From assembly GCA_012178725.1 (NCBI GenBank), contig GCA_012178725.1_3030.1: 64,000 bases of DNA, one strand, 5' to 3'. This document shows, piece by piece, positions 9,026 through 55,200 of the stretch. The position numbers were made by a program, and so were the translations under genes. The notes under the pieces are model-generated. The model ran no database searches, had not been told where the DNA came from, and saw only the letters and a program-made list of their open reading frames with translations. Source of the DNA: a phage. Every line of letters begins with the position of its first letter. Position 1 is the stretch's first letter.

Positions 9026-9805
9026 ATGGCAGTAGTAGGAATTCCTGGTTGGATTGGGACTTCAGCCGTCGCTGAAACAGGCCAGCGCTGGATGTCAGCG
9101 GCCTCTAGAGAATTGCGTCTAGGGAACCCATCTTGGATGTCACAATTCGCTGGACGCTCAAGAGAAATTATTCACACGCTTGGAGCAGACCATAACTTCA
9201 ATGGTCAATGGTTTCGTGACCGTTGTTTTGAAGCCGGCGGTGCTCCTATAGTGTTTAATATCACAGGCAACTTAGTATCATATTCTAAAGACGTTCCTTT
9301 ATTCTTCATGTATGGTGATACTCCTAACGAATATGTTACTTTGAATATTCATGGTGGTGTTCATATGTGGGGCCGAGGTGGTAATGGTAGCGTAAATGGA
9401 AGCCCAGGCACTAATGGTGGCGACGTAATCCAAAATGATATTGGTGGACGACTTCGTATTTGGAACTATGGCGTTATTGCATCAGGCGGCGGCGGTGGTG
9501 GTGCAGTGTCATTACAGAATAGCTGGGCACCAAATGCTACAGCAGGTGGCGGTGGTGGTAGACCGTTTGGCATCGGCGGAGGCGGCGTTAATTGGCCGGG
9601 TGGTAATGCTAGTTATGACGCGCCTGGCGGTGCCGGTTACACTTCCCAATTCGGCGGAGGCAATGGCGGTGATGCTGGAGGTCGGGGTGGAGATGGATGG
9701 GGTAATCACTTATCTAGATCCGGCGGTGGTGCTCCAGGTAGAGCGGTATTCGGTTCTTCACCATCATGGGGTGCAACAGGCACGATCTACGGTTCCTGGA
9801 TTTAA
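9026..9805 (+). CDS. 38: Tail fiber adhesin gp38, T2-type with glycine-rich motifs
   Basis: 259-aa ORF with several poly-Gly runs ([20 protein letters not shown]); T4 gp38 is a shorter chaperone without these. Confidence 0.85.
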
Positions 9806-25211: not shown

Positions 25212-25255
25212 AATTATCTCTCACTTGTTAAAAAGATTTTATACTCCGCAGGACC

Positions 25256-25285
25256 ATTATACTCTGGTCCCAAGAGTTTGTAAAC
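25256..25285 (-). promoter_or_regulatory. Early promoter (GTTTAC-N18-TATAAT) upstream of motB
   Basis: Reverse strand reads GTTTACaaactcttgggaccagagTATAAT. Confidence 0.6.
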
Positions 25286-25785: not shown

Positions 25786-25794
25786 AATTTTCCT

Positions 25795-26307
25795 TTAATC
25801 TAAGGTAATAAAGCCTTTTAATTCGGCATGCGATTTGCGAAACATTACTTGATGCCCACCAATGATAACTTGATCATCTGGCACTTCATAAATCGCAATG
25901 TACATTCCACGATCTTTTAAGTCTTCACGCTCTTCTCGAGTAAACCATCTCATTATATCATATTCACTAGCGAAAGCAAAATGATATAATGCAATAAACC
26001 ACAATGGAATATAATTTTCAATTCGTGAATAATCTTTATTCCATTTAGTTTTAATAGCATCATTAGCATTTTCAACTAATAACTTATCATCGTGCGGAAT
26101 AGGAATACTTTCATGACTTTCATAATTATCGCTATGATGATGAAATGACGATGAATTAATACCGCAAAATTTTAGCCAAGTTCGAGTTTTCATAGAATCA
26201 AATCCACGATAAGGAGTTGATTGAACACATAACTCTTGCCTAATTTTCATTATACCACTATCATCATTTAATGCGCTAAACGATGATTCAACACGATAAA
26301 TTTTCAT
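25795..26307 (-). CDS. Hypothetical protein (170 aa)
   Basis: ORF-track frame trimmed to MKIYRVESSF, which has a GAGGA ribosome-binding site; the longer start lies upstream of the promoter. Confidence 0.55.
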   Translation of the reverse strand: MKIYRVESSFSALNDDSGIMKIRQELCVQSTPYRGFDSMKTRTWLKFCGINSSSFHHHSDNYESHESIPIPHDDKLLVENANDAIKTKWNKDYSRIENYIPLWFIALYHFAFASEYDIMRWFTREEREDLKDRGMYIAIYEVPDDQVIIGGHQVMFRKSHAELKGFITLD

Positions 26308-26334
26308 TTTATTATCCTCAGTAGCTATGGTGTT

Positions 26335-26364
26335 ATAATACCACAACTGACCGAGGAAGTAAAC
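26335..26364 (-). promoter_or_regulatory. Early promoter (GTTTAC-N18-TATTAT) downstream of dexA
   Basis: Reverse strand reads GTTTACttcctcggtcagttgtggTATTAT. Confidence 0.6.
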
Positions 26365-26370
26365 AACTTT

Positions 26371-27054
26371 TTATCGTTTAGTTGGAAGAGATAGAGGATC
26401 GCATTCTTCCTCTGATGGAGCGTCTTCTAGACCCATAGCGTATCGCAAAGCATACTTCATCATCAGGATGTCTTTCGCACAGTCATGAATAGAATCATGT
26501 GCAACGAATCCATCTAAAGTTCCCTTTGGAAGAGGACATGTGGTCATATCACGAACAAGCAGAAGTGCTTCAATTCTGGTACGAATATCACGCTGATTCC
26601 AGAATTTACACGGTTCTAACTTAAATGTGTCAAGCTCATTCTCAGAAACACCATTAAGACGTTGAATATCACGAATGAGATCGACTAAAATTGGAAAATC
26701 AAACGACATTCCACGGCACCAGCCTTGAGATTTCCAAGGATCGATATTATGCGCATTGATGTAATCATTAAATTTTGCAATACCATCGATAGTGCTTACA
26801 TCTTCATCTGATGGTGCAATATTTTTTCTAGCTTCAGGTGATTGATTTTTCCACCATTCGATAGTGCTTTTAGTAAAAAGACGATGTCCTTTTTGGCTTT
26901 TTAAATCAAATTTGATTTTAATGCCGCGTGAAACTAATTCATCAAATGTTTCAACAACTTCCGGGTTAGGGTCAAAAGCAATTACAGCCAAATCAATAAC
27001 AGCTGCTTTTTCACCACTTCCCATCGTTTCAAAATCTATAATAAAATCAAACAT
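26371..27054 (-). CDS. dexA: Exonuclease A DexA
   Basis: 227-aa ORF with DEDD-type exonuclease N-terminus; length as T4 DexA. Confidence 0.9.
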   Translation of the reverse strand: MFDFIIDFETMGSGEKAAVIDLAVIAFDPNPEVVETFDELVSRGIKIKFDLKSQKGHRLFTKSTIEWWKNQSPEARKNIAPSDEDVSTIDGIAKFNDYINAHNIDPWKSQGWCRGMSFDFPILVDLIRDIQRLNGVSENELDTFKLEPCKFWNQRDIRTRIEALLLVRDMTTCPLPKGTLDGFVAHDSIHDCAKDILMMKYALRYAMGLEDAPSEEECDPLSLPTKR

Positions 27055-27311
27055 TAAATTTTCCTTGCTAAATCGCGAATTTGACCTACAGTATAGTCTT
27101 GAATATAAACTTTATTGATAGGCTCATCAATAAATTTTGCCATAGATTCAATGTCTTTTTGTATTTCTTCAAGACTGTATACTATCTTTAAAGCTTTTTC
27201 GCGAATAGTAATATTTTCAGGACCCTGATTTTCTTTAATGACAGCTTTAACATTTGCCATAAGAGATTTAAATTGGTACCAACTTAATTCAATCATTAAT
27301 AATCGCCTCAT
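27054..27311 (-). CDS. Hypothetical protein (85 aa), dexA.1 position
   Basis: ORF overlapping the dexA start. Confidence 0.6.
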   Translation of the reverse strand: MRRLLMIELSWYQFKSLMANVKAVIKENQGPENITIREKALKIVYSLEEIQKDIESMAKFIDEPINKVYIQDYTVGQIRDLARKI

Positions 27312-27549
27312 AAAGATAGCTAATTTCGCCTAAAACATAATCATTAATTGTAACAGTTTTCACTTCACCGCAAAAGAATTCTAACGCAATTAAATCTCGT
27401 TCAATTTCTTCTAATTGAAGCATCAACTTATTAGATTCAATTTTTACAGTTTCACGATTTTTACCATGAGCAATTTCATAAATTTCGCTAATTTTATCCT
27501 GAAGAAAATAAAACTGATCTTTAGTTATTTCCACGAATAGCTTCCTCAA
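27289..27549 (-). CDS. Hypothetical protein (86 aa), dexA.2 position
   Basis: ORF in operon orientation. Confidence 0.55.
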   Translation of the reverse strand: MRKLFVEITKDQFYFLQDKISEIYEIAHGKNRETVKIESNKLMLQLEEIERDLIALEFFCGEVKTVTINDYVLGEISYLYEAIIND

Positions 27550-27588
27550 ATTTAATCAATAATTTACAGACACTTTCATCTAGTGTAA

Positions 27589-27780
27589 TTACCGTATCTG
27601 TATTACTGTGATATGATTGTTTTCAATTCGTTTAATTGCTAATATAGTATCACTTATAAGATAAAGCTTATGAAGGAGCTCAGCTCCTGTTACCATAACA
27701 TTAAGATTATCTTGCTTATTAGTATGCTTCCTTATACCATCTATTAGACGATTTAAATATTTTGAATTGATGTTAATCAT
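27589..27780 (-). CDS. Hypothetical protein (63 aa)
   Basis: Short ORF between dda and dexA.2. Confidence 0.4.
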   Translation of the reverse strand: MININSKYLNRLIDGIRKHTNKQDNLNVMVTGAELLHKLYLISDTILAIKRIENNHITVIQIR

Positions 27781-27786
27781 ATATCC

Positions 27787-29106
27787 TCACACATAAAACA
27801 CATCATAACGACCACGAGTGACACCAACATAAAGAAGCTGCTGAGCTAATTCAGCATCTGCATAATGAATACAAGGCGTATAAATGAAAGCACGGTCTAC
27901 AGACATACCCTGCGCTTTATGGAATGTTGATGCAGGAAGTGCTTTCACTTTACTAAACTGTGATTTAGCATCCCAAAAATCGCTCCACGGAGCTTTTCCG
28001 CCTTTGTTCCAATTTTTATAAGTTTCTGCTGTTTTACCTAAAAATAGGTTAAACTTATACAATTCTTCATCAGATGAAATTATTTTAATCTTTTCACGAT
28101 AATATTCATCATCGCCATAAGTTTCTACTGTTAAATCCCAATGACGAATTAAGTATTCCCCAGAAACACCACGAGCTTTAACAAACGTTGATGTATACTC
28201 TGCTTCTATAATACGAACTAATTGTCCGTTATTAAAAATAATTTCTGACACAGGCTTTCCATCAATTTTATATGTTTTAATTAATGGTTCCTGCATTACA
28301 ATAATTTCACCGACAATAAAATCTTTATCAGTTTCAAAAATCTTTTTACGAATGATGTTATTTAACTTGTCAACAGATTTATTCGTAAATGCCATTACGC
28401 GATTTTCAAACAAATCATCTAGTGATTTTACGATTGAAAAATAATTTACCATAAAATCGCGTAAAGCAGTATCACCAGTAAATCCACGTACTCCATGCCC
28501 GTCAACAACTTTGTCATAAATCCACTTACCGTTGCGAACGTCAGTAGCTACATCAATAATAGGAGCATTACTGCGTTTAACTTCAGTGAGTTCACACTGA
28601 TAAAAATCTTTATGTGTAAAGAATGGACTGATATAAGCAGTATTTTCTCCTGGGTCAACAGGTCTAATTTGCTTATTATCACCTATTCCAATTATAGTAC
28701 ACCACGGCGGGATAGTTGAAAGCAGAATTTTAAATAGCTTTCTATCATACATTGACACTTCATCGCAGATTAATACCCTGCATTTAGCTAAATCTGGTAC
28801 TTCCTTCTGCTCAAAAAGAACGTTTTCTTCATATGTTACTGGGTTAATTTTAAGAATACTATGAATAGTACTTGCTTCTTTCCCTGATAGTTTTGAAAGA
28901 ATCTTTTTAGCTGCATGAGTAGGAGCTGCTAAAATAATACCAGTTTCACCCGTAGATATTAAAGCTTCAATGATGAATTTGGTAAGAGTAGTCTTACCGG
29001 TGCCAGCAGGTCCATTAATAGTTACATGATGTTTCTTTTCTTTAATAGCCTTCATAACAATGTTAAAGGCATTTTTCTGGCCTTCGGTCAAATCATCAAA
29101 TGTCAT
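27787..29106 (-). CDS. dda: DNA helicase Dda
   Basis: 439-aa ORF with Walker A GPAGTGKTT; length as T4 Dda. Confidence 0.95.
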   Translation of the reverse strand: MTFDDLTEGQKNAFNIVMKAIKEKKHHVTINGPAGTGKTTLTKFIIEALISTGETGIILAAPTHAAKKILSKLSGKEASTIHSILKINPVTYEENVLFEQKEVPDLAKCRVLICDEVSMYDRKLFKILLSTIPPWCTIIGIGDNKQIRPVDPGENTAYISPFFTHKDFYQCELTEVKRSNAPIIDVATDVRNGKWIYDKVVDGHGVRGFTGDTALRDFMVNYFSIVKSLDDLFENRVMAFTNKSVDKLNNIIRKKIFETDKDFIVGEIIVMQEPLIKTYKIDGKPVSEIIFNNGQLVRIIEAEYTSTFVKARGVSGEYLIRHWDLTVETYGDDEYYREKIKIISSDEELYKFNLFLGKTAETYKNWNKGGKAPWSDFWDAKSQFSKVKALPASTFHKAQGMSVDRAFIYTPCIHYADAELAQQLLYVGVTRGRYDVFYV

Positions 29107-29414
29107 CGTAAATTCCCTGCAATTGGTATACTAACAATACGCCCAGTATCTAAAATTCGCTGATATAATCTTTGTGTGTCTACGTCAGGCTTAACATGTT
29201 TAACTTCTATTTTATTAAACCAAAACTTACGTGGAGTCTCAACTAATCTTGGAATTCCCTTACCTAAAGCTAGTCGATACTGTTCTTTAAGAGTAGTAAA
29301 TACTTTATCAGCAATCTTCCATTCAAAAAATACAGCAGGACGATGTTCATCAAGCGGAACTGGCGCCGTAAATCCGTCTTTGTCTCGGTAAACTATCGCA
29401 TATACATAAACCAT
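29103..29414 (-). CDS. Hypothetical protein (103 aa), dda.1 position
   Basis: ATGA overlap with dda. Confidence 0.6.
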   Translation of the reverse strand: MVYVYAIVYRDKDGFTAPVPLDEHRPAVFFEWKIADKVFTTLKEQYRLALGKGIPRLVETPRKFWFNKIEVKHVKPDVDTQRLYQRILDTGRIVSIPIAGNLR

Positions 29415-29415
29415 A

Positions 29416-30162
29416 TTATCCTCGGATAAGTTTAAAAATTGAACAATTTAGCGGGTATCCTCTTTTCAGTTTAAGTTTATCAATAAAAGACAAGTTTTGA
29501 TACCGCTCTACACCTTGAATAATTTTATCACACATATCATATTGCATTTCTGCTTCTGACAACTTTTTCACAATTTTCCAATCCGAGCCTTTAAGAAGAA
29601 CGTTCAGTTTAACAACTTCAGCGCCTTCTGCTATGCGAGAACCATCAATACGAGCTTTAAGTGCTATAATCCTTAGCTTAATGTCAGAGGTCTGTTTTGA
29701 TTTAGAAAGCTGAGAAATGTGTTCAATTCGATTTTCACGTTTTTTCTGTATAGCTTTAATTTGATTATAAGTCTTTTTGATTTTAGCCCATTTCTTTTCA
29801 TCTAAATTTAGTTTATGAACTTTTTTCGCAGATGAACGACCAATTCGCAAAGCAAATAAATCCCGTTTTTCAATTAACTCCTCTAAAGTATAATCAGAAC
29901 GAAATGTATTATACTTTTTCTTTACTGCAATAACATTCCCTTTAATGTATCCAACGTTATTATCAAAACGTTCTAATGATAATTTCTCTCCTTCAATACG
30001 ATTATCAAAAGGTTCTCCCGAGTAAGCACAAACTTTTTGATCTAAAATGTTCTTAATGTAATTGAAGTCTAAGTTAAAATCTTTAGAACGTCTTTTTGCA
30101 GATGCCTGAGTATGCTCTAAACGACGTTTAATTTTACGAATTTGGTTATTAGACAGCTTCAT
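29416..30162 (-). CDS. srd: Srd-position protein (248 aa)
   Basis: Basic ORF between dda.1 and modA as in T4; identity by synteny and size only. Confidence 0.6.
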   Translation of the reverse strand: MKLSNNQIRKIKRRLEHTQASAKRRSKDFNLDFNYIKNILDQKVCAYSGEPFDNRIEGEKLSLERFDNNVGYIKGNVIAVKKKYNTFRSDYTLEELIEKRDLFALRIGRSSAKKVHKLNLDEKKWAKIKKTYNQIKAIQKKRENRIEHISQLSKSKQTSDIKLRIIALKARIDGSRIAEGAEVVKLNVLLKGSDWKIVKKLSEAEMQYDMCDKIIQGVERYQNLSFIDKLKLKRGYPLNCSIFKLIRG

Positions 30163-37855: not shown

Positions 37856-39282
37856 TAAAATTTTAATTCATTCGCCAAAGCATCTAACTGAGCTCGAGTG
37901 GATTCATTTCTTTGATAGCGATTCTGCTCAGCCTGAATCTGTTGTGAACCTGCTACTTCGTTCACTTCAGTTGGAGTAGAATCTTGTTCAATTTCTACCC
38001 ATTTCTGATTTCCCTTTTGAACACCCATCAAAAACTTATTCCACTTATTCTTATCGCCATATCGTGATTTGATTTGCTTAATGAGTTGTTGTTCAGCAGC
38101 TGCTAGCTCCTCGGTTTCAATGACCGCAAGCATAAAATCGGCTGTTGCTGGAAGACCGGCAGATTCTGCAATATCGCTCATGTTAACATCAGAAGAGTCC
38201 CAAGCTTGTTTACCGACCTGTGCTGCAGTCCAAAGAACAGTTTCGGTTTCAACAGCCAGAGCACGCAATTCCTCTGCAATAGCTTTAACAGTTGTGTAAC
38301 TATTTTCTGAATAAACTCGGATGCGACAAGATTTACAAATACCCAGATAATCTACAATAATGATTGTTGGAACAAAATTCTTCTTGAGCTTCAATTCATT
38401 CAAGAGAGACCTGAATGTATTAGCGTCTGCTCCACCAGTAGGATACTGTTTAACGATTAAACGACCAAGAGTAGATTTCTCACGCCATTTTTCCATTTTT
38501 CCTTTATACTCAGCGTAAGAAATATGCCCATCATCAATGTCATCAAGAGAAACATCAAGCATATTAGCATCAATACGCTTAGCACAGACTTCTTCTGCCA
38601 TTTCCATGGAAATGTAAAGAACATTATGTCCGAGCTGCAAATAATCTGCTGCCAATGAACACAGACCTAATGACTTACCAACGTTAACGCCAGCCATTAA
38701 AACGTTCAGTGTTCCAGTCTCAGCTCCGCCTTTAGTAATTTTATTTAGAATTCTGAGTTTAAATGGAACTTTACGAGCTTTATTCATATAAGATAGCCAG
38801 CGTGCTTCGTAGTCATCCATCCAATCATGACCAACGTAGCTATCAAATGAAATTGATAATGCTTGGCGCATGATGTCAGGAATAGCACCAACATCCGGCA
38901 TTTTCTTATTTCGTTTTTCCGGAGGAAGCTCAGCATTAGTTTGAATTTCGATTATTTTAGACGTAGCATTAAACATCGCCCTTTGCTGAACATATTTTTC
39001 TGTTTCTTTTACTAACCAGCTGTGGTCTTCTGGAGAATCAGCCAGTTTTGAAATAAGTGTTTTTACACCAGAATATTCTGTTTCAGTAAATGAACTATTT
39101 TCTAATGCAACATTTAACGCATTAATAGATGGAACGCTATGGTACTCATTAACATGAGATTTAATTAATTTGAATGTATTTTTAGCTGGACCACTTTCAA
39201 AATATTCTGAATCCATATATGGCCAAACTTTTGAAAAATAAGCTTGATCAAATATAAGATGAGAAAGAATAATTTCTACCAC
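37855..39282 (-). CDS. 41: Replicative DNA helicase gp41
   Basis: 475-aa ORF, DnaB-like; length as T4 gp41. Confidence 0.95.
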   Translation of the reverse strand: MVEIILSHLIFDQAYFSKVWPYMDSEYFESGPAKNTFKLIKSHVNEYHSVPSINALNVALENSSFTETEYSGVKTLISKLADSPEDHSWLVKETEKYVQQRAMFNATSKIIEIQTNAELPPEKRNKKMPDVGAIPDIMRQALSISFDSYVGHDWMDDYEARWLSYMNKARKVPFKLRILNKITKGGAETGTLNVLMAGVNVGKSLGLCSLAADYLQLGHNVLYISMEMAEEVCAKRIDANMLDVSLDDIDDGHISYAEYKGKMEKWREKSTLGRLIVKQYPTGGADANTFRSLLNELKLKKNFVPTIIIVDYLGICKSCRIRVYSENSYTTVKAIAEELRALAVETETVLWTAAQVGKQAWDSSDVNMSDIAESAGLPATADFMLAVIETEELAAAEQQLIKQIKSRYGDKNKWNKFLMGVQKGNQKWVEIEQDSTPTEVNEVAGSQQIQAEQNRYQRNESTRAQLDALANELKF

Positions 39283-39291
39283 ACTTACTCC

Positions 39292-39654
39292 TTAAAAGAA
39301 TTTAAATTTTTTCTTTGACCTTTTATTAAATGCATCTTGCAGTTGCATTGTAATACATTTTTCTACATGAGGAGCTAACTCAGCTTTTCTTTCTTGGTCA
39401 AGAACAGCAAAGTCCATTACGACTTTTCCATCAACCCAATCTAATTTTGTCACATACACAATGTGTGTAGAACCATCTTCTAGTTTAATGACAATCTCCT
39501 GGATAACATTTTCCATGGCAGATTTAATTATCTTAAGAGATTCATTAAAAAGACGTTCTTTTCTTTCTTCTTCCCCCTCCGAAGAGGGGGATTCATCGAT
39601 AATTTCTAGATCTAAATCTAAATCATCTTTATTCATTAAATTCTTCCATATCAC
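39292..39654 (-). CDS. 40: gp40-position protein
   Basis: 120-aa ORF between uvsX and 41; contains an in-frame UUCG hairpin (ccccctccgaagaggggg). Confidence 0.6.
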   Translation of the reverse strand: MIWKNLMNKDDLDLDLEIIDESPSSEGEEERKERLFNESLKIIKSAMENVIQEIVIKLEDGSTHIVYVTKLDWVDGKVVMDFAVLDQERKAELAPHVEKCITMQLQDAFNKRSKKKFKFF

Positions 39655-40810
39655 TTAACTGTTCGAGGTCAGTTTCTAAATCAGCAGCTGATTTACTTTT
39701 ACTTTCTGGAGATTTAAATTTTTCAACCTTTGAGTTAATCAATTCATCAACTTCAGCTTCAACAATTTCATTACTATCAATAGCACCTAACTGATAAGCA
39801 CGTTTAATAGCATCTCGGAATGGTTGATGCTTAAATAAAGGACCCCAGAATGTAGTGCAGTTGGTATCTTTTGCACGCCAAGATTTTTCTTCGCGAATCA
39901 TCTCGCCGGTTTCTTCGTCAAGAAATTCACGAGCATACCAACCATTCTTAGGTTTTACTACAAATCCTAATTCTAGAGCCATATCTAACAATCCAGAATA
40001 AGGATCGATACCACCGTCAAATTTAACATCAATAAAGAATTTACTTTTTTCTTTAACGGTACGAGATTTTTCTACATTTAGAACAAATTGATACCCTTGA
40101 AGATCAGAACCATCTTTAATCTGACGCTTACCGATAATGAATACGGTATCAGCCGAATACATTACGCCTGTACCACCTGTCATCACGGTTTTACTAAACA
40201 TTTCAATTGTTTCAATTGTATGGTTAACCGCAACACATGGAATATTTTTAATGCTAAAGTAAGGAGTAACAATACGGAATAATGACTTCAGTGATTTAGC
40301 ACGAGTCATATCTGCCACAGATTTTTCATTCAAGGCATCTTCCGTTTCTTTCTTAGAAGCCATATTACCAATTGAGTCGATGAATACTATAACCTTTTCA
40401 CCACGCTCAATAGCTTCAAGCTGATTCACCATATCAATTTTCAGCTGTTCAACTGATTGAATTGGCGTATGAATTACACGTTCCGGGTCAACTCCCATGG
40501 ATCGCAAATAAGCTGGAGTAATACCAAATTCGCTATCATAGAATAGACAAACTGCGTCAGGATATTTGTTCAAATATGCCGCAACCATAGTCAAAGACAT
40601 ATTTGATTTAAAGTGTTTAGAAGGCCCTGCGAAAATAGTTAAACCAGACTGCATACCGCCATCAATCGCACCAGAAATAGCAATATTAAGCATTGGGATT
40701 TTTGTACGGATTACATCCTTTTCATTAAAGAATTTAGATGTAGTCAGTTCAGCAGTCATTTTAGAAGTGGAAGCTTTAATCAAACGGGATTTTAAATCTG
40801 CAATAGACAT
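39629..40810 (-). CDS. uvsX: Recombinase UvsX (RecA-like)
   Basis: 393-aa ORF with Walker A GPSKHFKS; matches T4 UvsX. Confidence 0.95.
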   Translation of the reverse strand: MSIADLKSRLIKASTSKMTAELTTSKFFNEKDVIRTKIPMLNIAISGAIDGGMQSGLTIFAGPSKHFKSNMSLTMVAAYLNKYPDAVCLFYDSEFGITPAYLRSMGVDPERVIHTPIQSVEQLKIDMVNQLEAIERGEKVIVFIDSIGNMASKKETEDALNEKSVADMTRAKSLKSLFRIVTPYFSIKNIPCVAVNHTIETIEMFSKTVMTGGTGVMYSADTVFIIGKRQIKDGSDLQGYQFVLNVEKSRTVKEKSKFFIDVKFDGGIDPYSGLLDMALELGFVVKPKNGWYAREFLDEETGEMIREEKSWRAKDTNCTTFWGPLFKHQPFRDAIKRAYQLGAIDSNEIVEAEVDELINSKVEKFKSPESKSKSAADLETDLEQLSDMEEFNE

Positions 40811-40887
40811 TCATTTTTTCCATAGGCATCATTATATTTTCCTCACTGGTTAAAGATAGAGTAATTATAACACAATAAATTTAGGCA

Positions 40888-41736
40888 TTAATCAACTGCT
40901 ATTGGATGAATAGCATTAAACTTATGAAATGCTTCTGATTTTTCTTTACGAGAAACACACATGCGAAGAACCTTTAATGGCTCGTCTTCTTCACCCAACG
41001 ATTTTCGTTTTTCAATATTAGAAGTTTTCCAACGAGCTTGCTCTGGAAACTCTCTATTGATTTGCTCAAGCGCTCTATTATGTTTAGAATTACTACGAAT
41101 TGAACTGCACCCGCCAGGAGCTTGTGCTTTTCCAGATACAACCAGATATTTGAACAAGGCCAAATGCGGATAACCTTGATTAATTAAATTGAGAAATGCA
41201 TACATATCTTCGCATAAATCAATTTTTCCATACCCAATTTGTTCTGTCGTAAGTTTTCCGAGATCATACCATGTATTCGTGAATCCATATGAATTTTCAC
41301 GATAATTACCCCAAGATGAAGTAATTTTAAAAATAGGTAGACGAGCATGGCCATGATAATACCCACAATCCATGGCATCCTCAACATATTGAATCAATTC
41401 ATAGAACTGTTCACGAGTCAATTGATTGACTTTATCCACACAACGACGATCATCTCTTTTTCGCATTGAACTCATACGAATAGTAGTATCATCGTCAATC
41501 ATCCAGATTCGTTGACCTGCATACATATCAGTAATTGCTTTACGAGTACCAGCAATTCCATTTACATCATCAGGAATAGTTATAATTTTAGCTCTAGACC
41601 CATAGGCATCATAATAAGCTTTTTCTTCGTGTTCACGCACTACAATATGGGGTTCATAATCAGTCGGAAACATATCAAGGGCAGAAACTGCCCCAACACG
41701 CTGATAACTTGGAATTACGAATTGAATCATTTCCAC
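40888..41736 (-). CDS. Glycosyltransferase at the beta-gt locus (not T4 beta-gt)
   Basis: 282-aa ORF with DxD-like motif (WMIDDDTT); T4 beta-gt is 351 aa and unrelated in sequence. Confidence 0.6.
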   Translation of the reverse strand: MEMIQFVIPSYQRVGAVSALDMFPTDYEPHIVVREHEEKAYYDAYGSRAKIITIPDDVNGIAGTRKAITDMYAGQRIWMIDDDTTIRMSSMRKRDDRRCVDKVNQLTREQFYELIQYVEDAMDCGYYHGHARLPIFKITSSWGNYRENSYGFTNTWYDLGKLTTEQIGYGKIDLCEDMYAFLNLINQGYPHLALFKYLVVSGKAQAPGGCSSIRSNSKHNRALEQINREFPEQARWKTSNIEKRKSLGEEDEPLKVLRMCVSRKEKSEAFHKFNAIHPIAVD

Positions 41737-42467
41737 TCACCGTTATAATCTTTTTTCACAATATGAGTTTCGCCAGTATTCCACCAATGATCAACCAAGT
41801 AAAAATGACGAGAATATACATGAAGACTTCCAACATTCCATATAATAGAACCTGCTTTATACTGACGAGTTGAATCGCCTGCATTCAAATCAGATACTAA
41901 TTTATCTAATACGTATTTTTGCCATGCATAATCATTACGGAATCCGAAGACCACGTCATTTGAGCGCATGTTAACAACCGCATTGATTTTCTTGTCACGA
42001 ATCAGATACTGTACGGTATTCGTACACATGAAATCTGACATGCCATCTTTATTGTAGTCAAATTGCATGGATGGACGAGTATAAATCATGATACCACGTC
42101 GAGAATCAGGATTTTGACCAAGTTCAGCTAAACACATATCATATTGAGCATAGTTATCTTCTGACCAGATAGCCCAACCATAATTCGAGTTAATTTCACC
42201 TTTAGAAGATGCTACTTGTTGCCAAATCTTCGGTGTTTCACCCGGAATATCTTTAACGAACAAGCTCTTAGATTTATACCATTCAAGTTCACGCTGAATG
42301 TATTCATCATTAAGAGCGCCAAAAATAAACGGTTCATCTGCTATAAATGATGCGCCAATAATTTCAATAGTTTTAACGCCAGTTTTATCAACTACGAAAT
42401 CTTTTTCTTTTAATGCAAGCCCCAAATGAAGACGGATTTCTTCAACTGTCATAGAGTCACTAATCAT
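41727..42467 (-). CDS. 42: dCMP hydroxymethylase gp42
   Basis: 246-aa ORF; thymidylate-synthase-like; length as T4 gp42. Confidence 0.93.
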   Translation of the reverse strand: MISDSMTVEEIRLHLGLALKEKDFVVDKTGVKTIEIIGASFIADEPFIFGALNDEYIQRELEWYKSKSLFVKDIPGETPKIWQQVASSKGEINSNYGWAIWSEDNYAQYDMCLAELGQNPDSRRGIMIYTRPSMQFDYNKDGMSDFMCTNTVQYLIRDKKINAVVNMRSNDVVFGFRNDYAWQKYVLDKLVSDLNAGDSTRQYKAGSIIWNVGSLHVYSRHFYLVDHWWNTGETHIVKKDYNGEWK

Positions 42468-42620
42468 TTAAACCTCAATTGATACATTCATATTTAACTT
42501 GTAACAGTAATAAACCCCAACCTAAAATAATAGTTGGAATCATAAGAGGAACCGTTACACTATAGTATATACTTATTATAACCATCAAGATTAAAAGCAA
42601 CACTGCTATAATTTTGCTTT

Positions 42621-42872
42621 TCATTCTTTCTCTCTGATGATAATTACCTGATTTGGATGTGCAGACTTTTTGGTTTCACCCGCAATTGACCAAATGAATG
42701 TAATAAACCAACCAATAATTGACCAATTAAACAGTAAAGATGTGAAAAAGATTCCTACTGTCGATTTTGACCCACGCATCAAGGCGATAAACCATGGAAG
42801 CATGTATATAATAATAGCCAACACACCTGAAACTAAAACCATAAAAATTGAACCTGCTACTAAAGTTTCCAT
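42621..42872 (-). CDS. imm: Superinfection immunity protein Imm
   Basis: 83-aa ORF with two membrane helices; size and position as T4 Imm. Confidence 0.75.
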   Translation of the reverse strand: METLVAGSIFMVLVSGVLAIIIYMLPWFIALMRGSKSTVGIFFTSLLFNWSIIGWFITFIWSIAGETKKSAHPNQVIIIREKE

Positions 42873-42879
42873 GTTTTCC

Positions 42880-43260
42880 TCACTTAGTCAAATTTTTTAC
42901 ACATGAATTATAAGAATTCACTACATACTCCATCGGAGCATTTTTACCAGTACGCCATTGGTAATTATTAGCCCAATTAGCCCAAAGCTCGGCGCAGTAG
43001 TTTTCAATTTTTTCTTCGCGTGTAATTACATCCGAATTACGATATGCTTGAGCAGATTCATCTGGACGAATAGCTTCGTCAAAATTCGCCTGCATTTGTT
43101 CGACTGTTTGCTTTGGAGCTTCTTTATAACACTTGACATTAGGATTATAAAACTTGCTTGAACAGTTTACAATTTTTCCTGCATCAGACTGATTTACTAC
43201 CGGTCCTTGATCTACACAACCAGTAAGACCTAATGCAATAACCAAAATAGTGATTTTCAT
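42880..43260 (-). CDS. Predicted lipoprotein (126 aa)
   Basis: Signal peptide with lipobox LTGC. Confidence 0.55.
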   Translation of the reverse strand: MKITILVIALGLTGCVDQGPVVNQSDAGKIVNCSSKFYNPNVKCYKEAPKQTVEQMQANFDEAIRPDESAQAYRNSDVITREEKIENYCAELWANWANNYQWRTGKNAPMEYVVNSYNSCVKNLTK

Positions 43261-43272
43261 AATAATTTCCTC

Positions 43273-43524
43273 TTAAAACTTAACAAATAACTTTAAAGCA
43301 TCTTCAGTTTTAATTCCTTTTCTTACACCCATAACAGAAATTGGCTGTGACTGAAATTTTCCTTTACCATTATAAATTTCTAATCCAGTCACCATTCCAT
43401 TTTGTTCTATAATACCGTAAGTGTTACCTTCATTTTCAAATTCTTTAACTTTAAAAAGTTTATTCGCTTTTTCTGCGTTAACAACTTTTAAATTTTGAAT
43501 AAAATTAGTTTGAATATTTTTCAT
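43273..43524 (-). CDS. Hypothetical protein (83 aa)
   Basis: First gene after a duplicated promoter-leader cassette. Confidence 0.55.
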   Translation of the reverse strand: MKNIQTNFIQNLKVVNAEKANKLFKVKEFENEGNTYGIIEQNGMVTGLEIYNGKGKFQSQPISVMGVRKGIKTEDALKLFVKF

Positions 43525-43582
43525 TTTGTGTTCCTCCGTAGTTGATAGTTGTATAGTACCACAGAGGAACGGTCTTGTAAAC
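43524..43582 (-). repeat. Promoter-leader cassette copy 2
   Basis: About 55 bp nearly identical to 16389-16447, including -35, -10, ribosome-binding site and ATG. Confidence 0.75.
43552..43581 (-). promoter_or_regulatory. Early promoter (GTTTAC-N18-TACTAT)
   Basis: Reverse strand reads GTTTACaagaccgttcctctgtggTACTAT. Confidence 0.6.
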
Positions 43583-43654
43583 AGTTTTGTGAAAAAATTT
43601 TTAATGAATCCAAAAGGTCCAGAATCATCTGTTTTTCATAAGTATAGATTTATA

Positions 43655-43686
43655 TTACTTGTATGAAAAAGGGACCCGGAGGTCCC
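43655..43686 (-). terminator. Intrinsic terminator after gene 43
   Basis: gggacc-UCCG-ggtccc then TTTTTCATAC on the - strand. Confidence 0.65.
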
Positions 43687-43699
43687 CAGATTTATTCTA

Positions 43700-46396
43700 T
43701 CAGCCAAACAGGAAGTCTAACGAAGCTTTTTCTTCATAGTCCATACCAGCCGATTCACACATACCCGCAAGCGGTTTAACAAACGATTTTTGGAACAAAG
43801 TTGAGTAGTCAATCCAAGACAGTACGTCAGAACGAATTTCTTTTGGAAGTTCTGTGCCCGACGGCCAAGCAATACACTTGTCACCAAATGGATTTCCTTC
43901 ACGTAATGGAAGAACCATTACCTTATTTCCATCCAAAATTGGAGCTACACCTAAACCGCTAACAGCTCGACGATAAGTTAGCACACCACGAATATGGAAC
44001 GGGCATTTAAATCCTGGCCAACCTTTATCATCATATTTCGCTATATCGTTCGCAGTTTTTACTTCAGCAATAACTTTATAGTCAAGTTGACGATATTCTT
44101 TCTCGAAGTTCTTGTAATATTCTTGGACAGACTCTTCACCTTCCTGAAGAATACGACGAATACTTTCTTCAAGAGCTTCTTGGACCGCTTTAGGCGTTGA
44201 ACTTTGCTGAGTTTCCATACCCATGATTTTTAGATGCGGTTCAGCAAATCGCTTATCTTCCATATCATAAACATTCAGAGCATAACGCTTTTTCGCTTTC
44301 CAAAATCCACCAACGCCCTTTGAACCAAGCGGAGGGCAAGAAATAGCTTCACGGTCCATATGCATCAGATGCTCGCGGTTATTCATATAATCACATAACT
44401 CACGATATGCAACATCAATCATAGGTTCCATCTTTTTCTTACCGAACTGATTCATAAATTCAACTAAATCGTTCTGCTCTTTGAATCGGTCAAGACCAAC
44501 TTTTTCAATAACTTTATCTACACAAACATATACCGAATCAGTATCACCTGCTGCAATGAAATCTTCACCATTAGTTCCGCATACTTTATTCAGATATTCA
44601 TTAATTTTACGAGCAATCCACTGAATACCGACTTGGCCAAAAATTGTGATAGCAGTAGCATTTCGCAAATCATAGTAACGGAAATGAATATTACCAAGAG
44701 CACCATAAAGACTGTTAATGAGAATTTTACGGTTCAGCTGATTTGTGTTAGCAAGTGTAGCAGCTTTTTCACATTCCTCAATCAGACTATTGAGAACAGA
44801 TTCAGTATAATTCGATAGCTCATTTAAGAAATCATCACTGAACTTAACATATCGTTCAACTTCTGGTTTAGTTGAACAGGACCCTGCGCCTTTCATAATA
44901 ATCTTTTTAATAGCTTCGGCATTCATTTCTTCAGCGAACATTTTCTTTTTCCAATCTTTACGCTGGAAAAATACTTTAGCGATTTCCTTTGGAATGATAC
45001 CTTCTTGATGCTTATCATACATCCATCCATTCGGAGAACAAGAATATTCATCACTTGGTTTAGGAGCTGTTCCTGCGATATATTCATGAATTGGATGAAC
45101 TTTAAACTGTCCACGAATAGTCTCAGGACTAATGTTAACCTGACGAATAATGCTCGGATACAGAGACGTCAAGTCAAAACTCATAATATATCGACGAGCA
45201 ATTGGTTTAGGTTCAAACACAAATGCACCCGGAAAACTCTGTTTAACGTGCGAACCTTGTTGAGGAATAACCTTATGTTCACCTTTCAATGAGTTAAAAA
45301 TAATAGCATCCCAAGTTTTAATAGGACTCATTACACCAGAAAAAGGCATTTTAGCGTAATAAGACATACTTAAAACTAGATCGATAAACCCGCGAATTTT
45401 ATCAATTGCTTGAACTGATTCTACGTCAATGATGTTATAACTAATGTATCGTTGATGATTAGTCTCACGAAGTTTATTAATAGGACCGTCGTATGGTAAT
45501 TTACCTTTTTTGGTTTCATGTTGAGCAACTGATTCCAAAGAGAATGACGGCAAATTAGTAAAAGCGAATTTCTTGTACAAATCTAAATAATCAAGAATAG
45601 ATACGCCATCAATAGAATAAATTTCTTTGCTACCGTACATATTTTGAATTAGTTTAGATTTTACTCGACCGATTGGAGAGAAACGTTTCATACTGCGTTC
45701 GCCCAGAATCATTTTAACACGATTCATGATATACGGAACGTCAAATCCCTCAATATTCCAACCAGTAAAAATAGCAGGTCGTTTCTGTTCCCAGAGATTG
45801 ATATATTCCATGAGCATATCACGCTCATTATCGAATGGCATATAAATTACTCGGTCAAGAATTTCTTGAGGAACTTCATCACCACCTTCACAGTCAAGCT
45901 TAGCAGCTAACTTTGCATCCCATTTTGATACTGAACCGTACATTGAATTCAAAAGGTCGAAAACATAAAAACGATCGTCAATTGAATCGTAATGAGTGAT
46001 AGCATCAATTTCATATTCAGCTTTCATTGGGTCAGGAAATTTATCACCAGTAACCTCAATGTCACAGTTAGCTACACGAACAAATTTTCGGTCATAAACA
46101 ATTTCTGAACCATATGTATCACTGATATAAGCGAGTTTAAAATCGTTCATACCGAGAGCTTCAAGACCGATGTCTTCCATTCGCTTCATCCAATCTCGAG
46201 CATCTTTCATTGATGGAAATTTTTGAGGAGCACAGTTTTTACCATAGATGTCTTTGTATTTTGACTCTTCCTTACAATGCCTAAACATAGTCGGAAGATA
46301 TTCTACTTCACGGGTACGTTCCTTTCCATTTTCATCAATATAACGTTCAACAATGTTATTTCCGACTGTTTCAATAGAGATATAAAATTCTTTCAT
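43700..46396 (-). CDS. 43: DNA polymerase gp43
   Basis: 898-aa ORF with family B polymerase motifs (DTDS, YGDTDS-like); length as T4 gp43. Confidence 0.97.
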   Translation of the reverse strand: MKEFYISIETVGNNIVERYIDENGKERTREVEYLPTMFRHCKEESKYKDIYGKNCAPQKFPSMKDARDWMKRMEDIGLEALGMNDFKLAYISDTYGSEIVYDRKFVRVANCDIEVTGDKFPDPMKAEYEIDAITHYDSIDDRFYVFDLLNSMYGSVSKWDAKLAAKLDCEGGDEVPQEILDRVIYMPFDNERDMLMEYINLWEQKRPAIFTGWNIEGFDVPYIMNRVKMILGERSMKRFSPIGRVKSKLIQNMYGSKEIYSIDGVSILDYLDLYKKFAFTNLPSFSLESVAQHETKKGKLPYDGPINKLRETNHQRYISYNIIDVESVQAIDKIRGFIDLVLSMSYYAKMPFSGVMSPIKTWDAIIFNSLKGEHKVIPQQGSHVKQSFPGAFVFEPKPIARRYIMSFDLTSLYPSIIRQVNISPETIRGQFKVHPIHEYIAGTAPKPSDEYSCSPNGWMYDKHQEGIIPKEIAKVFFQRKDWKKKMFAEEMNAEAIKKIIMKGAGSCSTKPEVERYVKFSDDFLNELSNYTESVLNSLIEECEKAATLANTNQLNRKILINSLYGALGNIHFRYYDLRNATAITIFGQVGIQWIARKINEYLNKVCGTNGEDFIAAGDTDSVYVCVDKVIEKVGLDRFKEQNDLVEFMNQFGKKKMEPMIDVAYRELCDYMNNREHLMHMDREAISCPPLGSKGVGGFWKAKKRYALNVYDMEDKRFAEPHLKIMGMETQQSSTPKAVQEALEESIRRILQEGEESVQEYYKNFEKEYRQLDYKVIAEVKTANDIAKYDDKGWPGFKCPFHIRGVLTYRRAVSGLGVAPILDGNKVMVLPLREGNPFGDKCIAWPSGTELPKEIRSDVLSWIDYSTLFQKSFVKPLAGMCESAGMDYEEKASLDFLFG

Positions 46397-49805: not shown

Positions 49806-51488
49806 TTAAACCATTACAGTAAATCGACCAACTTTCTTCATTTGAAGATGCTGACCATATTCTTGCGGGTCATGGTCTTTATGTGAAATTATAAAAACAT
49901 TAGTGTTTTTCATTGAATTTATAATATTAGCTACACCTTTAATACCTTCGGCATCAAATGACCCATCAAACACTTCATCGAGTATTAATGTACTAATACT
50001 AACACCAGATACAATAGAAGCAATATCACGCCAAGTAAATAAAAGAGCAATATCAATTCGTGCTTTTTCACCTTCACTAAATGAAGCATAACTAAAATCT
50101 TCACGACCACGGGATTTAATTGTCTCATTAAATTCTTCATCTAATGTAAACACATAATCCGCTTCCATTATTTTAAGATAATGGTTAATCTGCTTATTAA
50201 ATAATGGAATGTACTTTTTAATAATAGCACCTTTAATACCAGAATCTTTGAGCATATCAGTCAAAATTCCTCTGTGGTATTTTTCCATTACTAAATTAGT
50301 TTTTGTCTTAACAATTTTATCAAGTTCTTCTTGAAGCAGTGCTATTTCATCAGCATGGTCAATAAACTCAGAAGATGCTTTTTCTATAGCCGCTTTAACC
50401 TTTTTAGCTTTATCTACCGTCGTGATTAGAGATTGCTTTTTATTGCGAATATCATTTGCCAACGACTGTTGGGTTTTAATATTATCTCGGTATTCATCAA
50501 CAAGAACTTTTAAATTATCACGGTGTGTTGAAAGCTGTTCAAACGAATGCGTACATTCAGAAACTTTATCTTTAATTTTAGAAACAACTTTATCACCGGA
50601 ACTTAATTGTGACAAGCAGGTTGGACATAATCCACCTTCGTGATACATATTAATGACTTTATTATACGAGTCAATTTTTGATTTAATTAAAACTGCTTCT
50701 TGACCGATTTTATTAAATGCATCAGTCGGGTCTTCATCTAAAACAATATTAACTAATCTTTCATTAGCTTCTTCTATTTCCGATTTTAGCGTTCTAGCTT
50801 CTTTTGCCAAATCATCATACATATTTTGAAGACGAGTAAGGTTGTCACCCGTTAATTTTTTCTGGCGTTCAACGTTATCATTATATATTTTAATTTGTTG
50901 GATAATACTATCTTTTTTAACATCAAGCACTTGGTTTTGTGAATTTAATTCACGTATTAGTGCTTTATTAAGCTTATCCATTTCAGCTAATGTTCCTACC
51001 TCAAGCAGGTCTTCCACAAGCTTTCTTCGCGCAGGGGTCGACAAACCCATGAAAGGGGTATACCCTGCTGTACCAAGGACAACAATCTGCTTGAAACTGG
51101 CATATGACATTCCGATAAGCTGTTCAAATTCTGCTTGGAAATCTTTACTGCTGGCAGATTCATTAAGACGTGTACCGTTAACGGTGATTTCGAAAACGTT
51201 CGGTTTTTGTCCTCTTTTGATATAGTACTTTTTCTCATCATATTCCATCCACAGTTCAACTAAAAGTTCTTTCTTATTTGTGCTGTTTATTAATTGACCT
51301 TTCTTTACATCACGAAATGGCTTACCAAAAAGCCCAAATGTGATGGCTTCTAACATAGTAGACTTACCACCGCCATTTCGGCCAGTAATAAGAGTTTTTT
51401 GAACCTTATCTAATTGAATGTCAACTCCATTTTGACCAACTGACATTATATTTTTATATTTTACTCTATTAAGTTTAAATGATTTCAT
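49806..51488 (-). CDS. 46: Recombination nuclease subunit gp46 (SbcC/Rad50-like)
   Basis: 560-aa ORF with Walker A GRNGGGKST and coiled coil; length as T4 gp46. Confidence 0.93.
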   Translation of the reverse strand: MKSFKLNRVKYKNIMSVGQNGVDIQLDKVQKTLITGRNGGGKSTMLEAITFGLFGKPFRDVKKGQLINSTNKKELLVELWMEYDEKKYYIKRGQKPNVFEITVNGTRLNESASSKDFQAEFEQLIGMSYASFKQIVVLGTAGYTPFMGLSTPARRKLVEDLLEVGTLAEMDKLNKALIRELNSQNQVLDVKKDSIIQQIKIYNDNVERQKKLTGDNLTRLQNMYDDLAKEARTLKSEIEEANERLVNIVLDEDPTDAFNKIGQEAVLIKSKIDSYNKVINMYHEGGLCPTCLSQLSSGDKVVSKIKDKVSECTHSFEQLSTHRDNLKVLVDEYRDNIKTQQSLANDIRNKKQSLITTVDKAKKVKAAIEKASSEFIDHADEIALLQEELDKIVKTKTNLVMEKYHRGILTDMLKDSGIKGAIIKKYIPLFNKQINHYLKIMEADYVFTLDEEFNETIKSRGREDFSYASFSEGEKARIDIALLFTWRDIASIVSGVSISTLILDEVFDGSFDAEGIKGVANIINSMKNTNVFIISHKDHDPQEYGQHLQMKKVGRFTVMV

Positions 51489-51503: not shown

Positions 51504-52358
51504 TCACAATGAAGAAAATTCTTTAACTAAAGCCTGTAATGAAGCCTCTATTGGATATCCATTCTTAACTAACATTTTCCTAAACATTACATGTTTAGGA
51601 CGATTATATGATATCCACAATTCATACAATTTATCTTTATTATCCCAATGATAGCCTTTTCGTCGAGATGCTATATGAGCTTTTCTAATCTCCGGATTTT
51701 TCCAACTAGCAGCTACTGAATTTGATATAGCTATTTTATATTCAGGTTTTGATAAAGCAGCACGAACAGCCTTTTGGTGTTTAATTTTATTTTCTTCGTT
51801 ATTAAACCATTCCCTTGAAGCCATTGAAATTTTTTGTTTTGTTTTAAAATTATTTAATCTTTCTTTATTATCTTTCCTATTTTTTGCTACTGAAAAATAT
51901 TTTAATGCCCTTTCTCTAGCAGCATTTCTATTTTGCGGATTTGAATAATACTGTTGAAGCCTTTTTGATATTGTGTCACTTACATCTTGTTTTATAAAAC
52001 TATATTCAGCAGCTATTAAATCAACTTCGGCTAAAGATAAATTTTTATATGTTTTTCCTGACATCATTCTATTTAAAGCATTTAGCATTTTTCCATTTTT
52101 ACCTTTTGCTAATAAGAAGTGTGCTTTAAAATGATTAAAATGACTTAAATTAACTAAATTCCATGTAGATTTTAAATATTCAGGAAATATTGATTTAGGA
52201 AGCACGTGGTGTGCTTCCGTTTTACCTGGAGTTTTAACAGTTGAATTCACAGAAATAAAATTAATGTAAGACTTGGCGTCTTCTTCACTCAACGCTAATT
52301 TTTCAACTAATTCCTTTATTAAAAATTCATCATTAATGTCAAGTTTAAAATTCTTCAC
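51504..52358 (-). CDS. Free-standing HNH homing endonuclease with C-terminal basic repeats
   Basis: 284-aa ORF with EAHHVLPKS...WNLVNLSHFNHFKAH HNH-like motif; GTG start overlapping upstream stop (GTGA). Confidence 0.7.
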   Translation of the reverse strand: MKNFKLDINDEFLIKELVEKLALSEEDAKSYINFISVNSTVKTPGKTEAHHVLPKSIFPEYLKSTWNLVNLSHFNHFKAHFLLAKGKNGKMLNALNRMMSGKTYKNLSLAEVDLIAAEYSFIKQDVSDTISKRLQQYYSNPQNRNAARERALKYFSVAKNRKDNKERLNNFKTKQKISMASREWFNNEENKIKHQKAVRAALSKPEYKIAISNSVAASWKNPEIRKAHIASRRKGYHWDNKDKLYELWISYNRPKHVMFRKMLVKNGYPIEASLQALVKEFSSL

Positions 52359-52570: not shown

Positions 52571-52805
52571 CCTTAATACAAGATACAGCCATATCTCGCA
52601 ATGATTTAGGTGTGTCATTATCTAAAATGTTGAAGTTAAAGGATACAGCCCAGTCAGTGCAGACCGTAACCTTTTTAATACAATTATCTTCAACCTCTAG
52701 CGGTTCAAACCAATATTCAATAATTTCTTTATGACCAATATCATCTTTTACTTCGCATTCAAAATGCTGACTCATCATAACATTTTTAAATTCATCAAAA
52801 GTCAT
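52542..52805 (-). CDS. Hypothetical protein (87 aa)
   Basis: ORF whose start overlaps the gene 47 stop. Confidence 0.5.
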   Translation of the reverse strand: MTFDEFKNVMMSQHFECEVKDDIGHKEIIEYWFEPLEVEDNCIKKVTVCTDWAVSFNFNILDNDTPKSLRDMAVSCIKDAYCEVFDI

Positions 52806-53821
52806 TGTGTTGCCTCTACATATAGCTGATTTGCATATTGAATAAGTGCTTCACGATCAGAATCAGTGATGTCTGGAATTGCATTAATATACTCTTCCAT
52901 TAATGTCTGAAGCGATTGAACTTCAACTTCTTCACTGTCATCTGACTCGACAGAGTTATCAATCTTTGACACAACTCGTAATGAATGCACAACTTTTTCT
53001 AGTTCAGATTCGAACTTCGTTAGATTTTTGTCTACTTCAGTTACTATAACACGTACTGATAGATTTGTAAAATCTTTATAGTCAATTTTTCCCTTAAATG
53101 GATATTGAATTCGACGATGCCAGGTAGTGTTGTTTGGAATAAATTCCATTCGTTCTGTTTCTGTATCAAACATCCAGAACCCGCGAGGGTCATTCTCGTC
53201 ACCTGCAGTTAGTGTCCATGGTGTCCCAATATATCTGACGTTAGCAGCCTCAGAGATAGTATGGAAGTGACCAGACCACACCTCTTTATAAGTCTTAAGG
53301 AAATCAGGTTCAAGACCGTGAGATTTCATTCCTTTATAAAAATAAAATCCATTCAGTTCCCAGTGACCAACGCAAAAAGAAGCAGATGAAGTTTTGATGT
53401 GTTCAAGAATTTCACCAGTATTTTCTTCACACATCCAAGGAATTAAATCAATCAAACATCCGTCAAAATCTACTGTAGTAGGCTTATCATATACTTTAAC
53501 ATTAGGATATTTAGCCAAAAGCTCAGTAGAAGCATTTGGAGTTAAAGTATTTTTAAAGTGCATATCATGGTTTCCTACAACAGTATGCAGGGTAATACCA
53601 GCATCATCAAGCATTTGAACTATTTCACGGGCGAATTCCATAGTTTTATGTGTGATTGCTTTTCGCACATCAAAAATATCGCCGTATTGAATCCATGTAG
53701 TAATTCCATTTTTCTTAGAATATTCTATTGCCTGTTTAATTCCATCCAACTGAATGGATTGAACCCACTCATCATCGGCTTTAACACCTAAATGCCAATC
53801 ACCTAAATTTAAAATTTTCAT
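52802..53821 (-). CDS. 47: Recombination nuclease subunit gp47 (Mre11-like)
   Basis: 339-aa ORF with phosphoesterase motifs (GDWH, GNHD); length as T4 gp47. Confidence 0.93.
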   Translation of the reverse strand: MKILNLGDWHLGVKADDEWVQSIQLDGIKQAIEYSKKNGITTWIQYGDIFDVRKAITHKTMEFAREIVQMLDDAGITLHTVVGNHDMHFKNTLTPNASTELLAKYPNVKVYDKPTTVDFDGCLIDLIPWMCEENTGEILEHIKTSSASFCVGHWELNGFYFYKGMKSHGLEPDFLKTYKEVWSGHFHTISEAANVRYIGTPWTLTAGDENDPRGFWMFDTETERMEFIPNNTTWHRRIQYPFKGKIDYKDFTNLSVRVIVTEVDKNLTKFESELEKVVHSLRVVSKIDNSVESDDSEEVEVQSLQTLMEEYINAIPDITDSDREALIQYANQLYVEATQ

Positions 53822-53981: not shown

Positions 53982-53999
53982 AAAGGGCCGAAGCCCTTT
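53982..53999 (-). promoter_or_regulatory. CUUCGG hairpin at the alpha-gt 3' end, followed by TATAAT
   Basis: taaagggccgaagcccttta overlapping the alpha-gt stop; same 20-mer as at 48401. Confidence 0.5.
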
Positions 54000-55200
54000 A
54001 TTTTGTAATAATGTCAAACTGTTCTTTAAAGCAGAAGCTTGAATCTTGATGCTGATACAAAAATTCATAAGCTTTTTCGCGTTCGCGGTCATAAAGAGTT
54101 CGATCAGATGACAGTTCTTTAATACGTTCAAATGTTGATTCCATGTCATTTTCATCAAACCAAATGATACCGCTATCATGCGAGGTCAAAGGAGTATTAT
54201 CAACACGGAATTTTAAATTTTCGCCAGTAGATTTCCAAAATACCGGAATTGTTCCACATGCACCAAGCTCGAGATGAGTATATTCTAAAGAACGTTGTAG
54301 ATATTTTTTATCCAACTTACTCAACTGATAACCAAAACCGGATTTACTCATACGTTCAAGCATTTCGCTATTTACATAACGGTCAAGAATTTGCGTTGGC
54401 AAATTAGGAGCAATTTTAATTTGGTCTACTTGATGAAGACGATAATACTCGTATGGAATTCCTTTTTCTTTAATAGGAATGAACGCTGGAGAACGTTCCA
54501 GACCTTCCATAATAGTACTTAGTCCTGCAGGTTTAAGATGTTTTTCATGAAAATCAAACATCTGATAAAAACCTTTCCATGTAGTCGTACGACCAATCCA
54601 ACGGTTGATATTCATGTTAATTTCAGAAACATCTTTCCAGTAGGTTGATCGAACCTTCGCAATATCCATCGGAGGTTGAAAGTTATATACTGTCGGTGCT
54701 TCTTCAATATCATCAAACAGAGAAACTGTTTCAGGATACCATTCTTTCATCAGAACTTTATTAAAATCACCATTATCAGAATGGCTAAAAATAACATCAG
54801 CTCGACGAACAGTTTCTTCTAATCCCAAATTTCGGCGCAAAGAAAGAGAAGAATGGTCATGTTGATAAACTACAACACGAACAGAAGGTTTAATGTTATC
54901 AATAATTTTTTTATAGTTATTAATAGTGTCTTCTTCAACCGAAGTAGCAGGAACTGAATTGATAATTAGAATATCACAATCATTTACCAGCTTAAGTGTT
55001 TTATCATATTCTTTTGCCAATAAAACCGGAATTGAAAATGATTTATAATCATGCGCGCAATTACGAGTAAATGATTTATCTTTAGCATAAACCAAAGTTA
55101 CTTCATGACCATTCTTAATAAACCAATCACGTTGCTCAAGAGAAAATTTAGTTACACCACAACCTTCAAGACCTCGAGCCATAAAAATACATACTTTCAT
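53998..55200 (-). CDS. agt: DNA alpha-glucosyltransferase
   Basis: 400-aa ORF MKVCIFMARGLEGCGVTKFSLEQRDWF...; matches T4 alpha-gt. Confidence 0.95.
   Translation of the reverse strand: MKVCIFMARGLEGCGVTKFSLEQRDWFIKNGHEVTLVYAKDKSFTRNCAHDYKSFSIPVLLAKEYDKTLKLVNDCDILIINSVPATSVEEDTINNYKKIIDNIKPSVRVVVYQHDHSSLSLRRNLGLEETVRRADVIFSHSDNGDFNKVLMKEWYPETVSLFDDIEEAPTVYNFQPPMDIAKVRSTYWKDVSEINMNINRWIGRTTTWKGFYQMFDFHEKHLKPAGLSTIMEGLERSPAFIPIKEKGIPYEYYRLHQVDQIKIAPNLPTQILDRYVNSEMLERMSKSGFGYQLSKLDKKYLQRSLEYTHLELGACGTIPVFWKSTGENLKFRVDNTPLTSHDSGIIWFDENDMESTFERIKELSSDRTLYDREREKAYEFLYQHQDSSFCFKEQFDIITK

Follow-up and report, generated by a model that had tools for sequence, protein, structure and literature searches.

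The gene between uvsX and gene 42 in the phage DNA analysed here, a stretch of 64,000 nucleotides that we call the window, almost certainly encodes a beta-glucosyl-HMC-alpha-glucosyltransferase of the T2/T6 type (ba-gt, ggt or TAGT). The protein is identical to those of phages Solly, EH2, and KAW1E185 at all 280 residues and to T2 ggt at 278 of 280. It agrees with T6 at 258 of 261 residues over the annotated part of record MH550421 and differs from the T6 protein of record AP018814 at four positions. At the family level, the match to the Pfam profile PF20691 (TAGT) spans profile positions 2–205 of 205 and scores 38.9 bits, above the curated gathering threshold of 27.5, and PHROG 842, labelled ‘beta-glucosyl-HMC-alpha-glucosyltransferase’, is matched with E = 2e-89. 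The link from these sequences to an enzymatic activity was taken from GenBank annotation and later papers; the original cloning of the T2 and T6 genes was reportedly by Winkler and Rueger (NAR 1993).

[quoted passage not shown] Both have now been carried out and bear out this reading, as do the GT-A fold of the structure model, the alpha-glucosyltransferase gene (a-gt) in the window, and the absence of segA and of a T4-type beta-glucosyltransferase gene (b-gt). We found no feature of the sequence that speaks against it. The features discussed below are collected in Table 1.

Table 1. Features of the window, with coordinates in window positions.
Feature	Coordinates	Strand	Basis or remarks
gp38, T2/T6-type tail-fibre adhesin	9026..9805	+	259 aa; PF05268 and PF21721
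uvsX recombinase, downstream neighbour of ba-gt	39629..40810	-	PF21134 and PF00154
Replacement segment, 946 bp in place of the 1941-bp segA and b-gt segment of T4	40799..41744	-	blastn
ba-gt (ggt, TAGT), beta-glucosyl-HMC-alpha-glucosyltransferase	40888..41730	-	280 aa from the most likely start; GT-A fold (model); DDD motif 79–81
Gene 42, dCMP hydroxymethylase	41727..42467	-	PF00303; T2 and T4 annotations concur
ORF between imm.1 and gene 43	43273..43524	-	83 aa; PHROG 18567 (function unknown)
Gene 46	49806..51488		
ORF between genes 46 and 47, probable mobile endonuclease	51504..52358	-	284 aa; PHROG 655 (homing endonuclease, E = 8e-45) and an HNH endonuclease PHROG
Gene 47	52802..53821		
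a-gt, DNA alpha-glucosyltransferase	53998..55200	-	400 aa; PF11440, E = 4e-237

The ba-gt locus and gene

ba-gt occupies the place where T4 has b-gt and segA, with the gene order of T2 and T6. We compared window positions 39000–43700 with T4 positions 20000–30000 by blastn. Homology to T4 stops at window position 40798 (3556 in the T4 locus), just inside the start of uvsX, and restarts at 41745 (5498 in the T4 locus), in the 3′ end of gene 42; from this position on, the gene 42 DNA is 96.5% identical to T4. The break coincides exactly with the borders of the T4 segment that carries segA and b-gt. A tblastn search of the whole 64-kb window with T4 SegA and T4 beta-gt returned nothing significant, the best match for beta-gt having E = 1.4. 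Moreover, the gap between uvsX and the stop codon of ba-gt is only 77 nt, and there is therefore no room for segA. The original prediction was thus right both in placing the gene between uvsX and gene 42 and in stating that segA is missing.

The gene lies within an uninterrupted minus-strand ORF at 40888–41736, which amounts to 282 codons when counted from a GTG. Judging from the sequence, translation most probably begins at the ATG at 41730, 6 nt downstream of this GTG, which would give a protein of 280 residues. This ATG shares the sequence ATGA with the stop codon of gene 42, and a Shine-Dalgarno-like sequence, GGTGAG, lies before it. The same ATG start and a length of 280 residues are annotated in every relative inspected, namely T2, Ptacy1496, Solly, EH2, and KAW1E185. 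Because of these annotations, the ATGA overlap, and the GGTGAG sequence, we took the gene as 40888–41730. The ORF originally predicted is real, and only its length has to be corrected, from 282 to 280 residues.

The ORF is clearly a genuine gene under purifying selection and not a chance ORF. All 25 nucleotide differences from EH2 and all six from Solly are synonymous, as are 18 of the 20 codons changed with respect to T2. A scan of positions 40600–42700 for consensus promoters and terminators gave match counts not above those of shuffled sequence. Since its start overlaps the stop of gene 42, ba-gt is probably co-expressed with gene 42, presumably through translational coupling.

Several other genes of the window were recorded. 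T4 has no counterpart of the ~275-bp segment that holds the ORF between imm.1 and gene 43; in T2, this ORF carries the name RB51ORF048. A further ORF, between genes 46 and 47, has no Pfam match and, from its PHROG matches, is probably a free-standing mobile endonuclease; T2 has other small ORFs at this site. The gp38 of the window is the adhesin found in T2 and T6, whereas the gp38 of the T4 type is a shorter protein that serves as an assembly chaperone; the adhesin fits a T2/T6-like rather than a T4-like phage.

Fold and the DDD motif

A search of PDB sequences found no solved relative of ba-gt, the best match being at chance level (E = 1.6). We built a structure model with AlphaFold2 from an alignment of nine sequences. 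The model has a mean pLDDT of 72.5 and a pTM of 0.73, with residues 131–150, 203–211, and 243–251 below a pLDDT of 50. Its confidence is moderate because the alignment is shallow, which in turn reflects the small number of homologue clusters (11) in a large protein database. The structural matches of the model are exclusively GT-A nucleotide-sugar transferases. According to the model, ba-gt is a transferase of the GT-A fold, a Rossmann-like alpha/beta/alpha arrangement, and is most like the GT2 family.

The DxD-type motif on which the original prediction had relied, WMIDDDTT, is found at residues 76–83. Its three aspartates, Asp79, Asp80, and Asp81, are invariant in an alignment of nine homologues that reaches down to 32% identity, and in the model they follow a predicted central beta-strand (residues 74–79). 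The DDD motif is predicted to hold a divalent metal and UDP. GT2 enzymes are inverting, and we infer an inverting mechanism for ba-gt; acting on UDP-alpha-glucose, such a mechanism would yield a beta linkage, as gentiobiose requires. The roles assigned to individual residues are putative, given the moderate confidence of the model.

Predicted DNA chemistry and alternative readings

The second enzyme of the predicted pathway, alpha-gt, is also encoded in the window, as had been stated originally. The window protein is identical to the alpha-gt of Solly, and likewise to that of T2, at 399 of 400 residues. Its identity is 92% to the T6 protein and 91% (365 of 400 residues) to the T4 protein. In the proposed mechanism, gene 42 would supply hydroxymethyl-dCMP, leading to 5-hmC in the replicated phage DNA. 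With UDP-glucose as donor, alpha-gt would attach an alpha-linked glucose to 5-hmC, and the product would be the acceptor of ba-gt. As judged from its sequence relatives, ba-gt would then use UDP-glucose to add a second glucose, beta-linked to the 6-OH of the first, giving alpha-gentiobiosyl-hmC. The pathway from gene 42 through alpha-gt and ba-gt (beta-1,6) to gentiobiosyl-hmC is established (PMC6024577, PMC13216743, bioRxiv 10.64898/2026.02.25.707755). The DNA of T6 without ba-gt behaves as alpha-glucosyl-hmC, not gentiobiosyl-hmC, and is degraded by Brig1 (PMC11078745), and BapA releases glucose from it (bioRxiv 10.64898/2026.02.25.707755).

The HPLC or mass-spectrometry check put forward with the original prediction is already published for two phages with an identical ba-gt, Solly and EH2. 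HPLC/MS of their DNA gave about one third 5-hmdC and two thirds alpha-5-gentiobiosyl-mdC, with low-background alpha-glucosyl-mdC and no beta-glucosyl-mdC, and the second glucose was assigned to the TAGT gene that is syntenic with T4 beta-gt (PMC13390438). The same composition is expected here, because ba-gt is identical and alpha-gt is one residue away from that of Solly. By this analogy, the DNA of the window phage is predicted to carry about one third of its 5-hmC bare and two thirds as gentiobiosyl-hmC, with little alpha-glucosyl-hmC and no beta-glucosyl-hmC. The reported gentiobiosyl content varies among phages, being ~5% in T2 and ~72% in T6, and a ratio of ~1:2:2 is given for the Durham phages EL, BGP, and Geo (PMC13390438). 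The di-glucosylated proportion is not readable from sequence alone, T2 having a near-identical gene pair and yet only ~5% gentiobiosyl-hmC.

The T2 value gives rise to the alternative that survives best, although we consider it unlikely: the ba-gt of the window could be a weak or inactive allele, and the DNA would then resemble that of T2, with mostly alpha-glucosyl-hmC and ~5% gentiobiosyl-hmC. T2 reaches only this level (PMC13390438, PMC11078745) with a ba-gt 99% identical to that of the window and an alpha-gt identical at 399 of 400 positions, so that the gentiobiosyl ratio does not follow from sequence identity alone. Against a weak allele, the window protein has neither of the two T2-specific substitutions, R11H and P251S, which are the only differences between T2 ba-gt and the common protein of the window, Solly, and EH2. 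The allele is instead that of Solly and EH2, phages with ~2/3 gentiobiosyl-hmC (PMC13390438), and the ORF is intact and under purifying selection. On these grounds we rejected the pseudogene or weak-allele reading in favour of an active T2/T6-type enzyme.

As a tentative explanation for the T2 value, we propose that the low gentiobiosylation of T2 may be due to R11H, which would be a hypomorphic allele found in the T2 lineage alone; the window would then carry the ancestral, fully active allele. The proposal is based on the invariance of Arg11, the nearly identical alpha-gt proteins, and the difference in gentiobiosyl content between T2 (~5%) and Solly and EH2 (~2/3). The window, T6, Solly, EH2, and KAW1E185 all have Arg11, which is also invariant in the nine aligned TAGT homologues. 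It follows closely on the first beta-strand, in a region through which enzymes of the GT-A fold contact the nucleotide. An exact search with 201 nt of the T2 allele retrieved eight records of T2 or SV76 (T2 or T2-derived) and no other record. The nearest non-T2 records inspected over these 201 nt, EH2 and KAW1E185, differ by one nucleotide and both encode Arg11. A literature search for the cause of the difference in gentiobiosyl content between T2 and T6 found no paper on this question.

A second alternative, which we regard as very improbable, is that the protein shares the function of T4 beta-gt as well as its locus and glucosylates bare 5-hmC directly in beta linkage. Its syntenic position and the name ‘beta-glucosyltransferase’ in several GenBank records (for example, KRT47, SH7, and Sf22) would suit this reading. 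However, the two proteins show no sequence similarity (best BLASTP E = 2.2), in keeping with the original claim that they are unrelated. They also belong to different Pfam families: PF09198 has no match in the window ba-gt, whereas it scores 325 bits with T4 beta-gt itself. Their folds differ as well, GT-A in our model of ba-gt and GT-B in T4 beta-gt. Furthermore, phages with an identical ba-gt have no detectable beta-glucosyl-hmC (PMC13390438), and ~25–33% of the hmC is unglucosylated in T2, T6, and Solly, which is unexpected for an enzyme that acts on bare hmC. A T4-type identity was rejected because of the different sequence, Pfam family, and fold and the missing beta-glucosyl-hmC.

Least probable of all is the transfer of another sugar, such as arabinose as in RB69-type phages, or a non-DNA acceptor. 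The TAGT family is diverse, with many members that are not accompanied by alpha-gt or beta-gt and whose products are unknown (PMC13216743), and it includes uncharacterised homologues at 48–66% identity in phages of Klebsiella, Enterobacter, and Serratia. However, the identity of 99–100% to enzymes of phages with measured DNA chemistry makes a switch of donor or acceptor very improbable, and the ba-gt locus is not flanked by genes for sugar-nucleotide biosynthesis; this reading was rejected on both counts.

The identification of a T2/T6-type ba-gt matters because it depends on the sugar pattern of the hmC which defences of the host are able to act against a T-even phage. Gentiobiosyl-hmC is resistant to the Brig1 glycosylase in vitro (PMC11078745) and to the BapA glucosidase (bioRxiv 10.64898/2026.02.25.707755), and GmrSD-family enzymes still cut gentiobiosyl-hmC DNA (PMC13216743, PMC13390438). 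An alpha-gt together with a Solly-type ba-gt thus permits a reasonable forecast of the DNA chemistry and of the sensitivity to defences, which helps annotation and the choice of therapeutic phages.

Distribution and comparison with known systems

A stretch of 1.2 kb around ba-gt is 100% identical to Escherichia phage Ptacy1496. This locus matches 575 phage records, nearly all of them Tequatrovirus, and in 473 phage records at least 80% of it is covered at a nucleotide identity of at least 80%. In most of these records the gene bears the name beta-glucosyl-HMC-alpha-glucosyltransferase. Among phages encoding these transferases, alpha-gt or beta-gt with TAGT is the usual pairing, and the T4-style pair of alpha-gt and beta-gt occurs in 6 of 753 phage genomes (PMC13216743). 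The arrangement of alpha-gt and ba-gt in the window is the common state of the genus, not an oddity. Publications already describe the gene together with its locus, fold class, and product, and the finding is correct but ordinary.

T4 b-gt (PF09198, CAZy GT63) has the syntenic locus next to gene 42, the use of UDP-glucose, and a beta linkage on phage DNA in common with the window gene. It differs from ba-gt in its unrelated sequence and fold and in its acceptor, which is bare 5-hmC and not alpha-glucosyl-hmC, and in T4 it comes together with segA, a homing endonuclease gene that the window lacks. The TET-associated glycosyltransferases of PF20691 (TAGT; GT-A, near CAZy GT2) resemble the window protein over the whole profile, including the DxD-type motif and the GT-A fold. 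The window protein extends beyond the Pfam domain by ~70 C-terminal residues (210–280). It also has no TET/JBP oxygenase nearby, the hmC of the window deriving from gene 42 at the nucleotide level.

T6 ba-gt (AP018814 BBF63468.1 = NC_054907 YP_010067197.1; MH550421 AXN58083.1) shares the locus and ~98.5% of the protein sequence with the window and differs by Y40N, D55G, and R106H. In addition, each of the two T6 records has a lesion from which the window is free. In MH550421, codon 10 reads TAG, and the annotated CDS begins at Met20. In AP018814/NC_054907, codon 10 is CAG, but one GAT of GAT-GAT-GAT is missing, which reduces DDD to DD. Stock variation, slippage, and sequencing error are possible origins of these lesions.

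T2 ggt (AYD82639.1, MH751506) shares the length of 280 residues, the position between gene 42 and uvsX, and the ATGA overlap with gene 42. It has His11 in place of the arginine found in the window and in all nine aligned homologues, and Ser251 in place of Pro251. The ba-gt genes of vB_Eco_Solly and vB_Eco_EH2, two phages of the Durham collection with measured DNA, encode the same 280 residues and are separated from the window gene only by the synonymous differences given above.
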